From: Octopus vulgaris
Lineage: Eukaryota
Direction: 5' to 3'
Length of the DNA stretch: 64,000 nucleotides
NCBI GenBank assembly: GCA_951406725.2
Contig: OX597822.1
Location: 8,060,001 to 8,124,000, forward strand
Of this stretch, positions 4,021 through 49,625 are shown piece after piece. Under the pieces are notes generated by a model. That model saw nothing but the letters and a program-made list of their open reading frames with translations. It made no database searches and was not told where the DNA came from. How positions within the stretch are numbered: the first letter of the stretch is position 1; every line of letters starts with the position of its first letter. Both the position numbers and the translations under genes were made by a program.

Positions 4021-4335
4021 AAATATTAGGGAATAAATCCAAATTTACAGGGAAAAATCAGATTTAGGATTAAATCCAATTTTATAGTAAAATAGTATAT
4101 AATATAATTCGAGACAAAACCAGTATTTTGCAAAACAAACAAGGAAAGACTTAATCAATACATAAAAATTTTTAATATAAAGAAATAAACCGCCACTACA
4201 ATCGTTTCATGTCTTCAATGACATTCGTCAGGTGGATTTTCGATCTCCTAATCTGTTTTAATTTATGAAGTGGCGGTTTATTTCTTTATATTAAATTTTT
4301 TTATGTATTGATTAAGTCTTTCCTTGTTTGTTTTG
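4021..4335. mobile_element. Short fold-back element between (TA)n tracts, with ~66-bp inverted arms 4131-4197 and 4269-4335
   Basis: CAAAACAAACAAGGAAAGACTTAATCAATACATAAAA...AAACCGCCACT is reverse-complemented at 4269-4335. A hammerhead lies at the apex. Confidence 0.8.
4193..4235 (-). ncRNA. Minimal type I hammerhead ribozyme (canonical core)
   Basis: Minus strand reads CCAC CUGACGA AUGUC-auugaa-GACAU GAAA CGAUUG UA|GUGG. Stem I has 4 bp, stem II has 5 bp, helix III is near-palindromic, and the cleavage triplet is GUA. Confidence 0.8.
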
Positions 4336-4576
4336 AAATAGAAATATATATATATATTTATATCGAATATATATATATATATATATAAGTATATAAAATG
4401 GAAATAAACAGTCTCTGACTGCTATTTCTAATTCTTTCGGTATGCGGCAGAGCAACCTGTTGCCTGCCCTTTTACTTATATACTATATATACTGAACTCT
4501 ACAGAAGTTCCCGACGCTAAAATTGTAAATAATTGCTGGTTGTCTGAAAAACCATCGAAAAAATTATTTACCCTTT

Positions 4577-8514: not shown

Positions 8515-9098
8515 GCATTAATGACTTATAGGCACGTGGTATTTTGTTATGTAACCATACCTATACAATAAAATATGTTAAATAAAATTTATAAGTCAAC
8601 AGCAACTTCTACTGTGTTAGCAGTGCTCTTTACATTATTTTGTTAAGGCTGTTTCTACAGAAATCAGCCAGCACTGATTTTTTGTTTTTGCTACAATGTT
8701 TCGTATCGAAACGTCAGATATAAACAAACAATGAGATCGAAGACAAAAATGAGTAATGAGCGTATATACCATATTTCGTGGGGTTTTTGCCCCTTCATTA
8801 GCATCCATCTAACCTCCTGCGCTTCTGATCCCATCCCTTATATGGCCACCGCATACAGTGGTGTTAAGTTATTGGATATACCAATGTGCATGTTAAACAC
8901 ATTCATTGAACTGGTATGTAAGCATTAATGACTGTAAGGCACGTGGTATTATGTTATGCAACCGTAATATATTATAAAGTATATTAAATATTTTTTATAA
9001 GTCAACAACACGTTCTACTATGTTAGCAGTGCTCTTTATATTATCATGTTACGGTTATTTCTACAGAAATTATATCCAGCACTGATTTTTTGCTACAA
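8515..9098. repeat. Diverged direct repeat of ~180 bp (8515-8697 and 8922-9098)
   Basis: GCATTAATGACT..AGGCACGTGGTATT...TGTTAGCAGTGCTCTTTA...TTTCTACAGAAAT..CCAGCACTGATTTTTTG..CTACAAT occurs twice. Confidence 0.85.
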
Positions 9099-9403
9099 TA
9101 TATTATGGTTCCATAACGAAATTCAGGTGTCTATAAATCATTAATGTTTACAAACCAGCTCCAAGAATGCGTTTAGTATGTAAATCGGTATATCTAATAA
9201 CTTAACACTTCTGTTTGCGGTGGTTATATAAACGACGTGCTCGGAGGTGACAGTGGATTAGATGGTTGCTGATGAAGGGGCACCCTCCCCCGAAATATGG
9301 AATATACACTTATTACCCATTTTCGTCTTCGGTCTCATTCTTTGTTTACAATTGACGTCTCGATATAAAACGTTGTAGGAAAAAATTAGTTCTGGTTATA
9401 ATT

Positions 9404-19217: not shown

Positions 19218-20493
19218 CATTTTGAGAGCCTTGGGAGAGGGTTCGAACACTGATGTCATCTACCTTGATTTCAGCAAGGCCTTTGACAGGGTTGATCATT
19301 AAATCCCTTTGAGAAAGTTGTCCAATATTGGTGTCACTGGAAAGCTGCTGCAGTGGATCAAGTGCTTCCTGCCTAACAGAGCCCAGCATGTTGTAGTCGA
19401 AGGAGTCAAATCCAGCCCAGCCAAAGTCAGTAGTGGTGTCCCACAACGCACTGCGTTGGGCCCACTTCTCTTCATCATCTACATTAATGACATCACTGAC
19501 ATCATCAAACACAGTAACATCAGAATCTTCGCTGATGATTCCAAGCTCCAGAAGGTCATCAATGGCATGGGTGACCGGATAAGCCTTCAGTCAGACCTAC
19601 TGGGTGTTGTCCAATGGGCGGAAAAGAACAACATGTTGCTAAACGAAGACAAATTCGAAATGATCCACTTTGGAAGGGAGGATGCTCTGAAACTCCCATA
19701 CTCTCTTCCTTCTGGTGAAATTCTCATGGCGTCTAGCAACATCAGATACTTGGGAGTAACTGTGGACAACAACATAAGCTGGGCTACACATATGAGCAGC
19801 AAAGTTGACATGGCCCGTAGAGTGCATTCCTGGATTCTCAGAACCACCCAGTCGAGAGATTCCCACACCATTATCATTCTCTTCTCCACTTTTGCCCGAT
19901 CCCACCTTGAATACTGCTGTCCACTGTGGTCTCCCTACACGAAACAAAATATTATGAGAATTGAAGCTCCCCAAATGTCAATCACAAAAAAGATAGATGG
20001 CATATTAGACCTCGACTACTGGAGTAGACTAGAAAAGCTGAAACTGTATTCACTAGAACGACGCCGTGAACGCTACATTATCTGTATGATGTGGAAAATA
20101 TTCCATCAGCACTGTCCGAATGATGTTGGCATTATCTTTAAAATACATCCAAGGCTTGGACCACGTGCCATCCGTCCACAACAAAAATCTAAATCGCATC
20201 ACATAACAACAATACGGCACAATTATTTCACCTCAATTGGACCCGCTCTCTTCAACATTACACCAGGACACGTCAAAACAGAAACTGACCACACAAAATT
20301 CAAGAAGTCTTTGGACAAATTCCTTCAAACAGTCCCGGACAAACCACCCACACCCGGATATGTCTCCGCAAACAATAACTCTCTGCTCGAGTGACCTTGG
20401 TGCCCAAATCCTGAATTGAAAAACTTCGCCAGGTTCTAACTATTAAGTTAGACATGGCATGGGCCGATACTGGCCAAAACCTTTCTAAGTTAT
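19216..20493 (+). mobile_element. 5'-truncated CR1-group LINE (RT domain to 3' end) between (TA)n tracts
   Basis: DVIYLDFSKAFDRVDH* is in frame with ORF 19309-20394, which has GVPQR(G)TALGPLLF.IYIND, IFADDSKL, YLGV, HLEYCCPLWSP and LYSLERRRER. It ends in a short 3' UTR with a TCTAAGTTAT tandem tail. Confidence 0.92.
19309..20394 (+). pseudogene. Reverse transcriptase, C-terminal part of a LINE ORF2 (361 aa open)
   Basis: RT motifs as above. A stop codon lies just upstream and there is no endonuclease domain. Confidence 0.9.
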
Positions 20494-20787: not shown

Positions 20788-20791
<4 letters not shown>

Positions 20792-21175
20792 TACATTTAA
20801 ACACGTAAGAGATATCAATCATAGGATTCCTTGCACGCTAGAGAGGACAGTTAAATTCAAAACCACTATTAATGATAAAACTTCGAAGGGAATGAGAAAT
20901 ATATACATTTGCCATCTAACACCTGGAGCAATGTTTGAGACATTTTAGCAAATAGAATAATTTGCTAAAGTGTACCTGCTGAAGAAGACTTCAAGCAAAT
21001 TAAATTATTTGCTAAAACAAGTCTCAAACCATTGGTCCAGTATTTAGATGGTAAATGTTTTTATGTTTCATTTCCTTCGAAATTGTATCCCTAAAAGTGG
21101 TTTGGAATTTAACTGTCCTTTCTAGCGTGCAAGACATCCTATAATGGATATCTCTTATGTATTTAAATGTACACT
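20788..21175. mobile_element. Fold-back element with ~180-bp diverged inverted arms and a hammerhead-like fold at the apex
   Basis: AGTGTACATTTAAACACGTAAGAGATATC...TTGCACGCTAGAGAGGACAGTTAAATTC is reverse-complemented as GAATTTAACTGTCCTTTCTAGCGTGCAAG...GATATCTCTTATGTATTTAAATGTACACT. Confidence 0.85.
20973..21043 (+). ncRNA. Hammerhead-like fold lacking G12 (probably inactive)
   Basis: UACCUG CUGAAGA AGACUU..AGCAAAU-loop-AUUUGCU..AAGUCU CAAA CCAUUGG UC|CAG. The left arm supplies CAGGUG, which would complete a 6-bp stem I. Both arms read CAAA where GAAA is expected. Confidence 0.55.
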
Positions 21176-21485: not shown

Positions 21486-21775
21486 AAACAATTGTAGCGT
21501 GGAAGGTGTTTATAAGCCATATAAGAAACACACAAAAACCGTTAGATTCACTTCAACATTTAAATTTATTTTGTAAAAATATTTTCGTCGCTTTGAGACC
21601 GCGATCTGTTGACTGACAAAATTCAGTGAGATGCAGCACGGAATTTTGTCAGTGAACAGGTCGCGGTCTCGAAATGACGAAAATATTTTGACAAAATAAA
21701 TTTAAATGTTGAAGTGAATCTAAAGGTTTTTGTGTGTTTTTTAAATGGTTTATAAACACCGTCCACGCTACAATT

Positions 21776-21779
<4 letters not shown>
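21486..21779. mobile_element. Fold-back element with ~140-bp inverted arms between (TA)n tracts
   Basis: AAACAATTGTAGCGTGGAAGGTGTTTATAAGCCAT...CTGACAAAATTC is mirrored by GAATTTTGTCAG...ATGGTTTATAAACACCGTCCACGCTACAATTGTTT. A single arm of the same family lies at 54152-54270. Confidence 0.9.
21643..21697 (+). ncRNA. Type I hammerhead candidate with compensatory G3-C8 core
   Basis: AUUUUGUCA GUGAACA G GUCGC-loop-AUGAC GAAA AUAU UU|UGACAAAAU. Stem I is a perfect 9 bp and helix III is the palindrome AAUAUU. The opposite arm has GCGAC, which perfects stem II. Confidence 0.65.
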
Positions 21780-25569: not shown

Positions 25570-28130
25570 CAGACCTTACTGATTCCCTCACAGTAGGAGA
25601 GAAACAACTGCTAAGCTATGGACCCAAATTCATTCTAACTCAACACAATGTCAAATTGAAACTGAAGATAGAGACCAACTTCTGTCGGACAGCTTACCAA
25701 CTAAAATAGATTACGGCCCTTAACCCCTCTCTCCCTACATCATCTTCGCCTTCATCGTCATCGCTGCTAATACCTTCACTGTCGACATTATCGCAGTTAT
25801 TACCCTCACTATCATCTACATCTTCTTCTACACCTTCCTCATCACCATCATTGACGACTTCATCTGCGTCATCGTCATCATCATTCCTTTTAGTCCTACC
25901 TCCTCCTCTCCCTCCACCGCCCCACTTCTTCCTCATCGTCTTCTTCACCATCTTCATCATAATCATCGTCATCTCTTTCTTCTTCTTCTTCTTCTTCTTC
26001 GTCTTCATCTTCTGCTTTTTAACATTCTACCCCCTTCTCTCCCTCCTCCTCCGTTACACTTAAATTCCCCGTCCACCACCTCGATTAATCAGTCCACCCC
26101 TCCCAAACCCGAACTCAACACTAAACTAACTAGACCCAAAAATCCATACTTAATATATTAGATAAATGCCCTTCCCATCACGCAACTTTACTAAATCCTA
26201 ATTACTGACCTTGCAAAACCTAAGAAACGAAACCCTCATCTACCTACCTACAGACAAAGGGAAGGAATTCTGCAGTATAGACAAACTCACCTGCACCAAA
26301 CTAGCTCTCGAACACCTCAGTGAAACCACACTGTACGAAAAGGTTTACAACATCACACCTCACTAACTGGAGTCCACCATCAACACCAGCTGAACCAACA
26401 TCTGTCACCAAAGGAATTTCTCTAAGAATACTAGACTGAACTACACAGCTAAAAACACCACTCTTCCAACCTTCTACCACTTAATAAAAACCTACAAACC
26501 CGGGCATAAGCTTATAGTCAGACCCATAATATTAGGAATTAACGGTCCTTTCTGTAAGATTTCTTGGCTCCTCTCTAAACTCCCCAAGCCCTTACTACAC
26601 GCATTCCCCGGACACATCAGCAGCTCCCCCCAAATCTTCACAAGACCCTCCATATCTAAAACTAACAAATACCCTTTTATTTTAGTCTCTATACCTTTGA
26701 ACCCGCTCTCCCGGCCGTTGATATCCTCATATACCACATCACGTCCTTAGTTCCCCCCACATCTCCTTGACCCACCTCAATCCTCATCTCTAGCTCACTC
26801 CCCTGCAATCTCTTCCTCCTCTCTATATTTCCCTTCGTCTTCTCCCACCTCTCCATCCATCAATATCCAGCTCTTCGGCCTCACACCCTCGGACATACGA
26901 GAGTTACTAACCATTATAGTTGGTAACACCTACTTCCAATATAAATGTGTGATTTACAAACAGATTTCCGACCTACCTATGGAATCTAGCCTTTCAGGCC
27001 TGCTGGCCATCACGTACATGGATAAGCTAGAACGCACAGCATTCAACACTTGCCGCTCATGCATCTTCTTCTCCAATTCGTCGATGACATCGTTATCATC
27101 ACGTCTTCCAGGGATGAGGCCATTATCATACACCAGACCTTCAATAACCGACATAAACATCAAACACGAGATTGAACATCCAGACGATTCCGGAATGCTC
27201 TCTCTCTACTCGACTTCCAACTAAAGATCACAGAGGAAGGCTCCATATTTACCAAATTCTAAAGAAAAGCAGCTAATAGAAAACTTTTCGTTCACTACCA
27301 GTCAACCTTACCCACCAGAGCCAAAGCCGCAACGTGACAAACGAGATTGCACGTATAAACAGCAATTGCGGTAACGTGACCGACAAAGCCGTCTTTAGCA
27401 ATCAGTTCCTCAGAGACATAAACCTGAATAGCTACTCACCATTTTAGATAAATAACGGTGCCTGAAGAACATCGAGGTCTATAAACCCCGGAAGAACCAT
27501 CGTACTCCCAAGTCCAGCACGTACATCCGAACGCTACCACACTTTGACGGCAGAACTACCGCAGCGATACAATACGCAGTCCGCAGAGAAGGACTCGACA
27601 TACAGACAGTGCACACCGGCCCTTCCCTGATAAAAGCTCTGTTCAAGAACAACACCTCTCACTAGCCCCCAGGAGTGCACATTGTCGAACTTCTCCTTCA
27701 ATGACCCTGAATTGTGCCAGAGGACCTATGTTGTATAGGAGATCACCCGTGGAAAATGTGCCGCGTCCTACATAGGAAGCACGACACGAAAACTGCATAC
27801 ACGCATTAAGGAACACATGCAGACAGACACTTCCGTGAAGAAACATCTATGGAAATGCCGGACCCGGGAATTCCCAGTGCATATCAAGGCAACACTGCGG
27901 AACAGGGGCAAGCATGGAATCTCTGAGGCCATCCTCATACACCAAAAGAAAACTAAGATCAACAATCGAAGAGAGTTACAAGAAGATATTTGGTTGATAT
28001 GGCAATGCCTTTCAACGCATGCCCACTCCACACACGCTCACACACATGCACATCGGCAACATTCGTCAATTTCTTGAAGATAGGGTGATAATCCCGAAAT
28101 ATTGAATACAAGATAAGTCTACATTAATTC
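25570..28130 (+). mobile_element. Decayed Penelope-like element (RT plus GIY-YIG endonuclease)
   Basis: Frameshifted motifs: EKQLLSYGPKF, YLPTDKG, PTFYHLIKT.KP...RPII, NTYFQY...YKQISDLPMESSLSGLLA..YM..LE, VDDI, LLDF, LFVHYQS and the GIY-YIG-like YVV*EIT.GKCAASYIGSTTRKLHTRIKEH. A low-complexity interruption spans 25710-26100. Confidence 0.85.
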
Positions 28131-43737: not shown

Positions 43738-43926
43738 TGGTGAGAAATTGACTATTACCAAATCGGTTGATAACTGATGAAAAATTAGGGACCTTCTGTG
43801 TCTGTCTCCCGTCCGGTTGTACACCCAATATGCGTTTTGTCTTTGTTTATCTACCATACATTTTTCATTTACGTTATTTATATTATTTATATTTGACGGA
43901 TATTTGTCCTCATCTTGTTTGTTATT

Positions 43927-43972
43927 AACACAACGTTTCGGCTGATATACCCTCCAGCATTCATTAGGTGTC
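43927..43972 (-). ncRNA. Minimal type I hammerhead copy (G5A damaged)
   Basis: GACAC CUAAUGA A UGCUG-loop-CAGCC GAAA CG UU|GUGUU. Confidence 0.65.
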
Positions 43973-44395
43973 ACGGGTTCTCTTTCCTAAGGTTCTCTTT
44001 CCTAAGGTATTTTTCGATGTTGTTGCTGTTGTTGTTGTTGTTATTATTATTATTATTATTGAGTGAGAGAGCAGTGCATGCCATCAAAGTGACACTGGGG
44101 TAAAATATACGAAGCCCAATATACCCATCAAGACCACCCGTCTGATAAGGGTACACTAGGCACATGCATCACAACCATATGTGCGCGACATGATGATCTC
44201 ATATCAAGATAAACAGCACATGACCTTGCAGGTGGGGCCCAGTTAGAATTTTCTTCATTTTGAGTAGCCCATCCTGCTCAAAAAGTCCCTGAATAAGGGT
44301 TGTTTAAGAATGTTGAACGAAACACCCATGTTCCCAGAGGTTAATTATTCAAACCCGAAAGAATCCCTCTCAACACATGGCTATGATGCTCCCCA

Positions 44396-44584: not shown

Positions 44585-44649
<65 letters not shown>

Positions 44650-44696
44650 TCGAAAAATACCATACGAATGAGAACCCATGTTCGAAATTTTCCCAA

Positions 44697-44742
44697 GACA
44701 CCCGATGAAGGCTGGAATGTATATCAGCCGAAACGTTGTGTT
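44697..44742 (+). ncRNA. Minimal type I hammerhead copy (U4C)
   Basis: GACAC CCGAUGA A GGCUG-loop-CAGCC GAAA CG UU|GUGUU. Combining it with the partner copy restores CUGAUGA. Helix III is the palindrome ACGU. Confidence 0.7.
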
Positions 44743-45803
44743 AACAACAAACACGATGGGGACAAATGCCCGTCAAATGTAAATAATGTATATAGAAATG
44801 AATTTTTCATTTATTATGTATATATATATATATAAAACTATAAATTAGGCTATCCGAGAGATACCACCATGCTGAAATAGCAGGCAAAACCTGACCCTAA
44901 GGCCACCTTAAATGTTCATATAGCACTAGGAGAGAAGACAGAGAGACAAAATAAACTAGAAAAAAATATTTTTTACTGGATAATTCCAGAACCTGGATTT
45001 CTGGCTTTGCATAAGAGAAGCTCTGCCTTCTTCAGCGGAATATACCAGATAGCACATAAATACAGATACATATGTATACAGAAAATACGTTATACTTAAA
45101 TATACGAACGCCCATACATACATATATATGCACGTATGTACATGGCCAGCTTAAATTACACGCCTAACAGTCTTTATTTTGACCATATCGCGCTGTTAGG
45201 TGGGTAATTTAAGCTGGTCGTATACATAAGTGCATATATATGTATGTATGTATGAGTGTTCGTATATGTAAGTATATCGTATGTTCTGTATATATATCAT
45301 TTTTGAAGAGATGTAAAATTCGATACATAATATTTTGAAATATAATCTGAACATGTGTTGGAATAATTGTGAATTTGATGATTGCTTATATGTATTTATA
45401 TATGTATATATATGGTTATACATTTGTGTATATGTTTATATATTGTAATCTTCCAAAACTGAAACACGTATAGTTCCCTCATATTTAATAAATATAAGTA
45501 TTAACTAAAGTAGGATATAATTAACGAAGTATATTATATACCCTGTTGGTAATTCTGGTTATATGATTTAATAATTTCGTGATATCCAAACTGATACGAT
45601 GTGTTTACTGTCAGATATACTCATTGGGTTATTTTTGTATTATCTGAAATATTAATACCCGCATATATTAATATTGAATTTTATCAGATACTTTGTATAT
45701 TTATAGATAAATATATAAATATACGATAAATAAAAAACCCCAAAGTACGATATGTAGATGCATGCACCTGATTGATTCGGAAATTTGTTTAACCAAATTA
45801 TAA

Positions 45804-46672: not shown

Positions 46673-47539
46673 ATATATACACACACATGTACGTTACTTT
46701 GATAGCGTCCTGAATGCGTTCCTCTTCTCCCACCCCTTACTTCCATCTCTCTTTCGCTAGCGGTTATTTTTTGTTCTTCTTTTTCTTTCCCCCCTCCCTA
46801 CGTTTAAGAAATACTTCCCATCTCTCTTGTCTGTTATAATTAGTATATGTATACACCAAGAGATTTTTATGCGCGTCCGTATATGTATATGTGTGTATGT
46901 GTATTTGAGCGTATATTTATGTCTTACATATATGCCTGTTTATATATGTAGCTATATGCATGCATCTGTGTATTTTGATGTATATATGTATACTATAGAT
47001 GGTCTAGTATGCGTATAAACTGTGGTTAAATATTTATGTAATGCAGCGTGAACATTTTATTTTTAATGTATTGACTTATATTTCGTATATAATTATTTAC
47101 AATACGTATTTTGAATCTTCTCTTCGATTTAAGGTTTTCTTCCATTTTATAATAGGATGAATGTACATTGAATCCATTTATTTTGTTCATTGCATGTTTA
47201 AGACTGTTAATTGAAATGACCAATGAAACAAATCCATTTTTGAAGGTGTATCCTTTAAATAGTGTTGATTATATCGTTATTTCTGTTCCATTTTAACAAA
47301 ACTGTCCGACGAACGGGAACGCGATCTTTATTATTGTCACACTGCCTTCTGCGTAGAGTGACAATAATAAAGTTGTTACTATCGTGGTTACGTGATTGAA
47401 GTTTGAGCCCGATGGATCTATTTTTCTTTCTGGCTTTACAGTGTAAGCCTAGCCGCTCCACTAGCAATGTGCAACATTGAAGAACGAAGAGCAGTGATCC
47501 AGTCAGCAATGCAAGATAGAGTGCTTTGGTGACGAAAAA

Positions 47540-47863
47540 ACTAAAGCCAGCTATTCGCACCAACTGCGTTCTCTATTGTCGAAGCACGTCCACACACGGC
47601 CGACCAGATCATGGAAACCATTAACAAACTGAGTTTTTAGGGGCGGAAACACTCTGCCTACAACCCAGATCTCGTCCCTTTCGACTATCATATCTTTCGA
47701 ATGCTCAACGATGGTTTACAAGGTGGTCGATTACCTACGGATGAAGATGTGAAGGAAGCTGTGCACGAACAACCGTAAACATTCTTCTCGGATGGAATAC
47801 GCAAAGCTTGTAGACCACTGGGCCATGTGCATCGAAAAGAAAAGAGATTATATAGAAGAATAA
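47540..47863 (+). pseudogene. mariner transposase C-terminal remnant
   Basis: HSAYNPDLVPFDYHIF (YSPDLAPSDY-like)..DEDVKEAVHE..FFSDGIRKLVDHWAMCIEKKRDYIEE*. Confidence 0.85.
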
Positions 47864-48087
47864 CAGACTCTTGTCTATCATGCTTTTGCTTAAATACATC
47901 AAAAAGCAAGAATACGTATAAGATTTTACTGTCCCTCATACACACGTACACACACACACACACATAGAAATCATTGTGGTTACGTGAGCATAGTAGTACC
48001 AACTATAAGCACGCATGCGCAGAAGGCAGTGTGATAATAATATAGACACGTTATGGTGAAAGCGCTGATACATTTTGACTTACCCTC

Positions 48088-48123
<36 letters not shown>

Positions 48124-48164
48124 GACAAATTGGAGTTGTAAGGTACCGCACGAGTTGAATTATA

Positions 48165-48380
48165 ATACGAAAGAAGGCTTGAAAATGTAATTTTAAAAGA
48201 TGCTTATTTACTTTACCGGTTTCACTTTTTAGAAAAAAGATTGTCAAAATTATTGTCACAACCAATATTTAACGCAACCAAACTTCTACATGTTACTTTT
48301 GACAACCTTTTTCTAAAGAGTGAAACCGGTAAAGTAAATAAACATCTATTAAAATTGCATTTGCAAACCTTCCTTTGTAT
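48165..48380. mobile_element. Fold-back element with ~84-bp inverted arms between (TA)n tracts
   Basis: TTATTTACTTTACCGGTTTCACT..TTAGAAAAA..TTGTCAAAA is mirrored by TTTTGACAA..TTTTTCTAAAGAGTGAAACCGGTAAAGTAAATAA. Confidence 0.85.
48293..48337 (+). ncRNA. Type I hammerhead candidate with compensatory U3-A8 core
   Basis: UUACUU UUGACAA CCUUU-uucu-AAAGAGU GAAA CCGG UA|AAGUAA. Stem I has 6 bp, helix III is the palindrome ACCGGU and the site is GUA. Stem II is imperfect at its base. Confidence 0.55.
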
Positions 48381-48574
48381 ATATATATATATATAAATAT
48401 ATATATATACATACACACATACGCACACACAAACACACGCGCACACATATACATATACACACTCATACATGCATACATACATACATACATACATACATAC
48501 ATGCATACACACGGAGCGCGTGTGAGTGAGAGAATTCCTCTCAGCTTGATATGCAGAAACAAGCTTTTTCACCA

Positions 48575-49280: not shown

Positions 49281-49625
49281 GTGCCAAAGGTCCCGTCTTC
49301 CACATCCAGGGTAAGGAGCAGATACTGTAATAGCCTGGGGTTCAGGGGCCCTCAGCTTTTCAACAAACTGCCAAGAAAACTAAGAGATCTACATGATGCG
49401 GATGTGGACATTTTCAAAAAACATCTAGACAAGCTGCTTTCCGGGATCCCAGATGAACCCACTGCAAGGTACGAAGGTAACCTAAGGGCAGCAGCTACAA
49501 ACTCTCTCTTAGATCAGTGGCCAGCCACGCAAACTGGACTTGGAGAGGATAGCAACAAGGGTGGTGCCCCAGCATGGCCTCAGCCGGATGGCTGAAACAG
49601 GTAAAAGAGTAAAAGAGTAAAAGAG
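49281..49625 (+). mobile_element. 3' end fragment of a second CR1-group LINE inserted in (TA)n
   Basis: [19 protein letters not shown]...[16 protein letters not shown]...ATNSLLD aligns by eye with the C-terminus of ORF 19309-20394. It ends in a (GTAAAAGA)3 tail. Confidence 0.85.

Follow-up and report, generated by a model that had tools for sequence, protein, structure and literature searches.

A minimal hammerhead-like motif with a U3-A8 core in a high-copy repeat family of Octopus vulgaris, probably of Penelope type

The motif and its chance rate

A minimal type I hammerhead-like motif with a U3-A8 core lies on the plus strand of a 64,000-nt stretch of Octopus vulgaris DNA (the window), at the inner end of a fold-back near 48 kb (Table 1). 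The sequence data support this description, and comparison with assembled contigs places the motif in a high-copy repeat family that is common to three organisms. The locus itself probably goes back to a Penelope-like element (PLE) whose terminal repeat (pLTR) was inserted here in 5'-truncated and inverted form and is now dead.

Table 1. Features of the insertion near 48 kb and of the hammerhead-like motif that it carries (positions are those of the window).
Feature	Position	Strand	Remarks
(AT)n microsatellite, left flank	48092-48122	.	likely target
Tail of left copy	48125-48164	-	~40 bp of family sequence; at the 3' end of the left copy only
Left copy, inverted	48165-48249	-	ends inside the stem I 5' strand
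Core of left copy, inverted	48247-48241	-	H17 = 48214
Head-to-head junction of the two copies	48250-48252	.	locus-specific
Right copy	48253-48377	+	5'-truncated at ~48253; ~40 nt upstream, hammerhead, ~40 nt downstream; no tail, then (TA)n
Minimal type I hammerhead-like motif, right copy	48293-48337	+	stem I, core, stem II region, GAAA, ACCGGU
Stem I, right copy	48293-48298 with 48332-48337	+	6/6 pairs
Core UUGACAA, right copy	48299-48305	+	U3 = 48299, A8 = 48304, A9 = 48305
Stem II region, right copy	48306-48321	+	16 nt
Stem II pairs, preferred register	48307-48311 with 48316-48320	+	extra U/C at 48306, extra U at 48321
GAAA, right copy	48322-48325	+
Palindrome ACCGGU, right copy	48325-48330	+	CCGG, then U16.1 = 48330
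A17, right copy	48331	+	predicted cut 3' of 48331
(TA)n microsatellite, right flank	48378-48413	.	likely target

The elements listed in the preliminary description (a 6-bp stem I, UUGACAA, GAAA and ACCGGU at the inner end of the fold-back) are all present, at coordinates that agree with ours. The arms of the fold-back align over 93 columns with 81 identities, 10 mismatches and 2 gaps (48252-48161 on the minus strand against 48294-48385 on the plus strand), the arm core being about 84-85 nt long. As had been reported for UUGACAA, the core recurs in both arms; so do GAAA and CCGG, and U3-A8 is found in each arm. The left copy makes only four of the six stem I pairs because it ends inside the 5' strand of that stem.

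Chance occurrence was estimated from 60 block-wise dinucleotide shuffles of the window. The descriptor combined a Watson-Crick 3-8 core, GAAA, a palindromic loop III and at least six consecutive stem I pairs, and it was drawn up post hoc, with the motif already known. Two sites in the window satisfy it, the motif at 48293 and another at 21652, against 0.033 expected per window. Folding of the 55-nt stretch alone is no better than that of its own shuffles (z = -0.91). Rfam hammerhead covariance models gave no match at gathering score anywhere in the window; at E values up to 10, the 60 Rfam matches between 47900 and 48600 are all to generic hairpin models and none is a hammerhead.

The surrounding DNA is AT-rich animal sequence with many microsatellites, SINE-like repeats and broken retroelement frames. 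A decayed mariner-like transposase fragment with in-frame stops, recognized by eye from the translation, occupies 47250-47870 (+), 300 bp upstream of the motif. A 363-aa open stretch at 19303-20394 (+) matches RVT_1 (Pfam, E = 3.2e-10) and is a LINE fragment; a short piece of a similar 3' end may lie near 49330-49595. A sigma-70 scan stayed at chance level and is not relevant to an animal genome.

The repeat family and the architecture of the insertion

Family members were sampled in four of the 17 listed runs as contigs at least 80% like the window. They number 895 in X1 (organism A), 611 in X2 (organism B), 228 in X4 (organism C) and 19 in X13 (organism A). Either X1 or X2 may be the window's own sample, and X13 is only guessed to be RNA, so that its 19 contigs are no basis for claiming transcription. 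Summed depth over the motif reaches 4.0-5.9 x 10^5 in X1, against 60.8 for an X1 contig identical to the left flank; summed depth is not equal to copy number, and we infer that family copies number in the thousands.

Differences between contigs and window were tabulated from 4% of depth upwards (14 rows at 13 places). In all four runs, no variant reaches this threshold at U3, U4, G5, A6, A8, A9, GAAA, CCGG or U16.1, and ACCGGU as a whole is invariant at the same threshold. Because nothing at or above 4% is seen at 48299 or 48304 in any of the four runs, U3-A8 is the state of the family and no local accident. The cleavage-site base is more variable: in the right arm, A17 is replaced by U in 18-58% and by C in 0-10% of depth, while in the left arm C accounts for 19-94%. 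Family variants at position 17 are A, U or C, and G is never listed. Elsewhere in the motif, one stem I position shifts from U-A to U.G in 20-67% of depth with both strands kept, and 48314, a U/C variant of loop II, is C in 87-99% of right-arm depth. The left-arm stem II reads AAAAAG instead of AAAGAG, with one extra U; it is well covered in X2 and X4 without any listed difference and seems to be a second family type, the two arm types differing by U.G versus U-A in this stem.

All five family-level variants inside the motif are ones that a hammerhead tolerates. The hammerhead model accepts 21 of 45 transitions and 16 of 90 transversions, and a five-of-five outcome has a chance probability of about 0.003, or 0.007 when the variant used to choose the stem II register is left aside (hand arithmetic, post hoc). 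The argument is tempered by the fact that C to U and G to A, the latter at a CpG, are common directions of mutation. Family shares are depth-weighted and the contigs were window-like, which biases apparent conservation toward the window's letters; a diverged C3-G8 sister family would escape the 80% likeness cut. Since the family has few variable sites overall, the invariant core is modest evidence of selection.

Upstream family sequence has no match elsewhere in the window, and no PLE reading frame could be linked to the family from the window and the family contigs. A pattern scan of metagenome, genome and viral contigs returned 31, 25 and 1 loci, respectively. None of the 57 belongs to the family (best BLASTN match, 38 nt) and none shows six consecutive stem I pairs. 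Many of these matches (L002, L005, L008, L033-L038 and others) come from Desulfobacteraceae-type contigs that share a conserved TTGACA and resemble one another in the letters after it; stem I is missing from them, and they seem to have nothing to do with hammerheads.

Contig ends define the architecture of the locus. In all four runs, loose ends of family contigs depart from the left arm at 48249 with the spacer letters of the right copy, and in X1 and X13 they extend upstream of 48253 with letters absent from the window. Because contigs diverge at 48249 and 48253, the fold-back consists of two 5'-truncated copies placed head to head and is no pair of terminal repeats. A single X2 contig bridges the junction (48214-48303, depth 50.1, one difference). 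Past the arm end, family contigs enter TATA. Bins covering the tail have summed depths of 50,021-97,575 in X1, and loose ends behind 48164 in X2, X4 and X13 lead into the arm end (in X4 through joints 48164-48372 and 48164-48201). The occurrence of UUGACAA in two arms does not count as independent evidence for the motif, the arms being parts of one inverted insertion.

This layout, an inverted truncation with a one-sided tail between (TA)n flanks, matches published PLE insertions. In the accessible parts of the papers cited here and below, an inverted 5'-truncated copy with a 30-40 bp tail at one end is described as typical of PLEs, together with a bias toward microsatellites (PMC8557442), and head-to-head is the commonest arrangement (PMC3846280); the tail has been tied to two start sites of reverse transcription, and AT-rich DNA is cleaved (PMC11167929). 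By analogy with this literature, the reverse transcriptase/GIY-YIG protein of the element would have nicked AT-rich DNA, and copying of the RNA would have begun at either of two sites about 40 nt apart, giving one copy with the tail and one without. Nothing but the end with the hammerhead would have survived truncation. A tandem transcript of the source element would carry two hammerheads, which could pair through the self-complementary ACCGGU (a 6-bp helix III joining the copies) and exchange their stem I strands; U3-A8 would take the place of C3-G8, and slow cleavage 3' of position 17 would trim the element from read-through RNA. Several observations weigh against a PLE reading, namely the missing linked frame, the lack of an Rfam hammerhead match, a marginal stem II, and the four of seven fold-backs in the window that contain no match to the strict descriptor.

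A borrowed origin, in which a short non-autonomous hammerhead retroelement of retrozyme or SINE type uses PLE enzymes, would account for the absence of a reading frame, and animal retrozymes have been argued to be non-autonomous PLE derivatives (bioRxiv 10.64898/2026.07.22.740005, accessible part). We consider it quite unlikely: the locus has no tandem unit, its hammerhead geometry is minimal rather than canonical type I, and the tail and inverted truncation are marks of PLEs themselves. Two inverted arms between TA flanks, a mariner remnant nearby and the lack of Rfam support might also suggest the remains of a MITE or another DNA transposon with a TA target, the arms being its 85-bp terminal inverted repeats and the hammerhead likeness a matter of chance. 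This proposal is largely refuted, and very improbable, by the locus-specific junction at which family contigs diverge, by the one-sidedness of the 40-bp tail, by the low chance rate given above and by the recurrence of the same layout in other fold-backs of the window. Finally, the host could keep the locus for a function of its own, for instance to make a long hairpin RNA or to cut one of its transcripts in a regulated way. The junction is indeed present in a run of a second organism (X2), and the arms can form a hairpin of -91 kcal/mol. This idea is extremely improbable, since both arms depart from the family at several places of their own, the 10 differences between them over 91 aligned positions are what neutral decay predicts, and no gene is evident nearby.

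Stem II, folding and predicted activity

If the locus is a PLE insertion, its hammerhead departs from the usual pattern mainly in stem II. A family stem of the type ACUCUUU/AAAGAGU had been anticipated, and family copies do not show it. They read A at 48305 and U at 48306, the latter in 99.5-100% of depth (the C at 48306 in the window is private to this copy); the AC/GU pairs next to the core therefore do not exist. Two registers remain. Register a (UCUUU/AAAGA) makes five Watson-Crick pairs with a 2-nt bulge before G12 and is available to the right-arm type only, whereas register b accommodates both types: an extra U follows A9, a C-G pair and four or five U-A/U.G pairs come next, and another extra U precedes G12. 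We prefer register b, a being ranked below it because it breaks in the left-arm type. If b is right, the family carries at 48306 the extra base after A9 that is typical of PLE hammerheads.

Five or six stem II pairs are thus possible, with either the extra U before G12 or the 2-nt bulge, at -0.5 to -0.7 kcal/mol. The stability on which the preliminary description made the motif depend is therefore borderline, as folded for the two natural copies of the window only. Neither register has a purine at 10.1, and G10.1-C11.1 is absent; stem II is weak and probably closed by a U.U mismatch followed by C-G. By our own count of the 56 rows of PLE hammerheads in Fig. S3 of PMC4209133, helix II opens with G in 51, A in 3, U in 2 and C in none, and one row has an extra base before GAAA; G10.1 is known to help metal ion binding in hammerheads. 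The unusual part of the motif is the stem II junction rather than the 3-8 pair, and it may entail weak or no activity.

Calculated folding of this copy is unfavorable. As a monomer, the hammerhead fold has -0.7 kcal/mol versus -7.3 for the minimum free energy structure, and as a dimer the double hammerhead has -12.3 to -12.7 versus -18.9 kcal/mol. Stem II pair probabilities do not exceed 0.06. The ACCGGU duplex by itself has -10.3 kcal/mol (10-nt pieces). In the isolated motif, A17 pairs with U3 at a probability of 0.91, resembling the C3-G17 trap known in hammerheads (PMC3884650). A transcript through both arms would collapse into the long hairpin, all hammerhead pairs falling to 0, and the two motifs are unable to dimerise within one RNA because they lie on opposite strands. 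Between 48293 and 48323, an alternative helix of 8 pairs (-4.3 kcal/mol) can form in which the 5' side of stem I exchanges its own partner for the 3' side of stem II, possibly as an on/off fold or as a by-product of AU richness.

Altogether, the private change at 48306, the predicted misfolding, the opposite-strand arrangement and the loss of most of the stem I 5' strand on the left suggest that this copy is probably inert, and cleavage in its own context is unlikely. For RNA of the family type, the prediction that it cleaves as a dimer has about an even chance. PLE hammerheads have been found to show no activity as monomers and low activity as dimers (PMC4209133). The C3U/G8A covariation occurs naturally and had been shown to be active in vitro, and natural hammerheads with a very weak stem II exist (PMC3088659).

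The same PLE origin is compatible with a hammerhead that was crippled before the family spread, U3-A8 and the odd stem II being frozen relics. The pyrimidine at 10.1, the extra U before G12 and the fact that no PLE hammerhead of the 56 opens stem II with C speak for such a history, as does the competing stem I/stem II pairing; hammerhead mutants, moreover, left PLE insertion in vitro unimpaired (PMC11167929). Yet the family has retained the rest of the core, both stems and the palindrome including its CpG, its variants respect pairing and the NUH rule, hammerheads with a very weak stem II occur in nature, and one of the 56 published motifs has an extra base before GAAA. We regard early crippling as possible but doubtful, and retain the insertion of a PLE terminal repeat, with its hammerhead possibly still functional at the family level, as the preferred reading.

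Other fold-backs in the window and relation to known hammerheads

All four matches to the strict descriptor lie inside short fold-backs (2,931 of the 64,000 bases) and point outward. Three of seven fold-backs hold such a match, versus at most one of seven in 500 shuffles; shuffled windows average 0.67 matches. The C-G and G-C versions of the 3-8 pair announced by the preliminary description are indeed found, at 44702 (+) and 21652 (+), next to the U-A version at 48293 (+). The conclusion drawn from them, that three Watson-Crick combinations argue for selection on the fold, stands in part: the three pairs support the view that hammerheads are a conserved part of these elements, but not selection at this locus. 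The families bearing the three pairs show no cross-match to one another. Since the pairs come from three unrelated families, any selection acted on mobile elements and not on the locus.

The G-C case is the least secure of the three. It belongs to a fold-back at 21486-21779 (131 of 143 positions identical) that ends in (TA)n; the hammerhead-like motif at 21652 (+) has a 9-bp stem I, an extra G after A9, G10.1-C11.1 and a palindromic AAUAUU. G3 and C8 occur in both arms. Position 5 is G in the right arm and in a third copy of this family at 54282-54147 (-), which begins at U4, and C in the left arm. If a natural G3-C8 family exists, its novelty would exceed that of the U3-A8 family: in the papers found, as far as their accessible parts go, G3-C8 figures solely as a mutant made in the laboratory, and Lunse et al. 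2017 or the remainder of the PMC4209133 supplement could list G3-C8 or such a stem II closure.

The C-G case is a head-to-head pair of C3-G8 minimal hammerheads, 43864-44024 (-) and 44643-44802 (+), with (AAT)n repeats and a SINE-like insert between them; a single core mutation is found in each arm, different in the two. Close by, a small fold-back without visible hammerhead (45100-45267) is flanked by a separate C3-G8 candidate at 45041-44983 (-) whose stem I has 6 bp and whose loop III is not palindromic. The fold-back at 8685-9384 has arms of about 290 bp (231 identities) and, at 9269 (+), a C3-G8 core with a 4-bp G-C stem II; this motif has G at position 17 and fails the strict descriptor. 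So do the degenerate C3-G8 stretches seen by eye at ~4230 (-) and ~20980 (+), each in the longer copy of its fold-back (4124-4340 and 20788-21175).

Broken PLE-like frames for a reverse transcriptase and a GIY-YIG domain, with frameshifts and stops, were recognized by eye at 26150-28110 (+) (Pfam GIY-YIG, E = 0.081). At ~28070-28105 this remnant ends in a hammerhead-like motif of minimal type whose 3-8 pair is a U3.G8 wobble; the end shows no match to the U3-A8 family. Its segment 26751-27221 found nothing in Pfam, PDB or the protein database; in the Atlas it fell with unnamed eukaryotic clusters (0.95-0.96) and with one cluster in which 21% of members carry RVT_1 (0.90).

The U3-A8 core in PLE hammerheads is already in print for other animals, and the octopus family adds one more animal lineage to them. 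Our literature search, which did not extend to Lunse et al. 2017, found no paper on hammerheads in octopus PLEs, and the accessible part of PMC13282606 mentions neither hammerhead nor ribozyme. The locus is also a tidy small example of a Penelope insertion, with inverted truncation and tail. Should RNA of the family cleave without G10.1-C11.1, standard descriptors and Rfam models miss such motifs; should it not cleave, a large family with a dead ribozyme bears on whether PLEs need hammerheads. A bolder proposal, which we hold to be rather doubtful, is that the family's hammerhead works with U3-A8 and a U.U/C-G stem II, the cleavage base having moved to U or C and so avoided the U3-A17 trap; together with the G3-C8 family, one genome would then hold active Penelope hammerheads with three different 3-8 pairs.

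Among known systems, the Cercyon PLEs of Schistosoma mansoni share U3-A8, found there in about 1,300 matches of minimal hammerheads (Cervera and De la Pena 2014, PMC4209133; rows S. mansoni 3 and 4 of Fig. S3). They also share the type I topology, an extra base after A9, a palindromic 15.2-16.2 region, AU-rich flanks, dispersed truncated copies and opposite-strand pairs; dual minimal hammerheads 100-700 bp apart on opposite strands have been described in PLEs (PMC4209133). Unlike those of Cercyon, the octopus motif has a 6-bp stem I, a 4-nt palindromic insert (CCGG) and an AU-rich stem II with U.U and C-G, or U-A and a 2-nt bulge, in place of G-C/G-U. The 56 rows of Fig. S3 include no cephalopod-type or matching row, and A17 is present in five of them by our count.

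PLE hammerheads of Drosophila, rotifers, shrimp, mosquito and Oikopleura share a short palindrome between GAAA and the cleavage triplet, and hammerheads of this kind have been proposed to act as dimers (PMC4209133); unlike the octopus motif, they have C3-G8 and a purine at 10.1. The natural C3U/G8A hammerheads of Perreault et al. 2011 (PMC3088659), found across genomes and metagenomes, show the same covariation at positions 3 and 8, while the octopus motif is without a real monomer helix III. With canonical EN+ PLEs (Penelope/Poseidon, Neptune, Nematis, Hydra), the octopus locus shares head-to-head truncation, a one-sided tail of about 40 bp, an AT-rich or (TA)n target and a hammerhead in the repeat (PMC8557442, PMC3846280, PMC11167929); it differs from them in holding the repeat end only.
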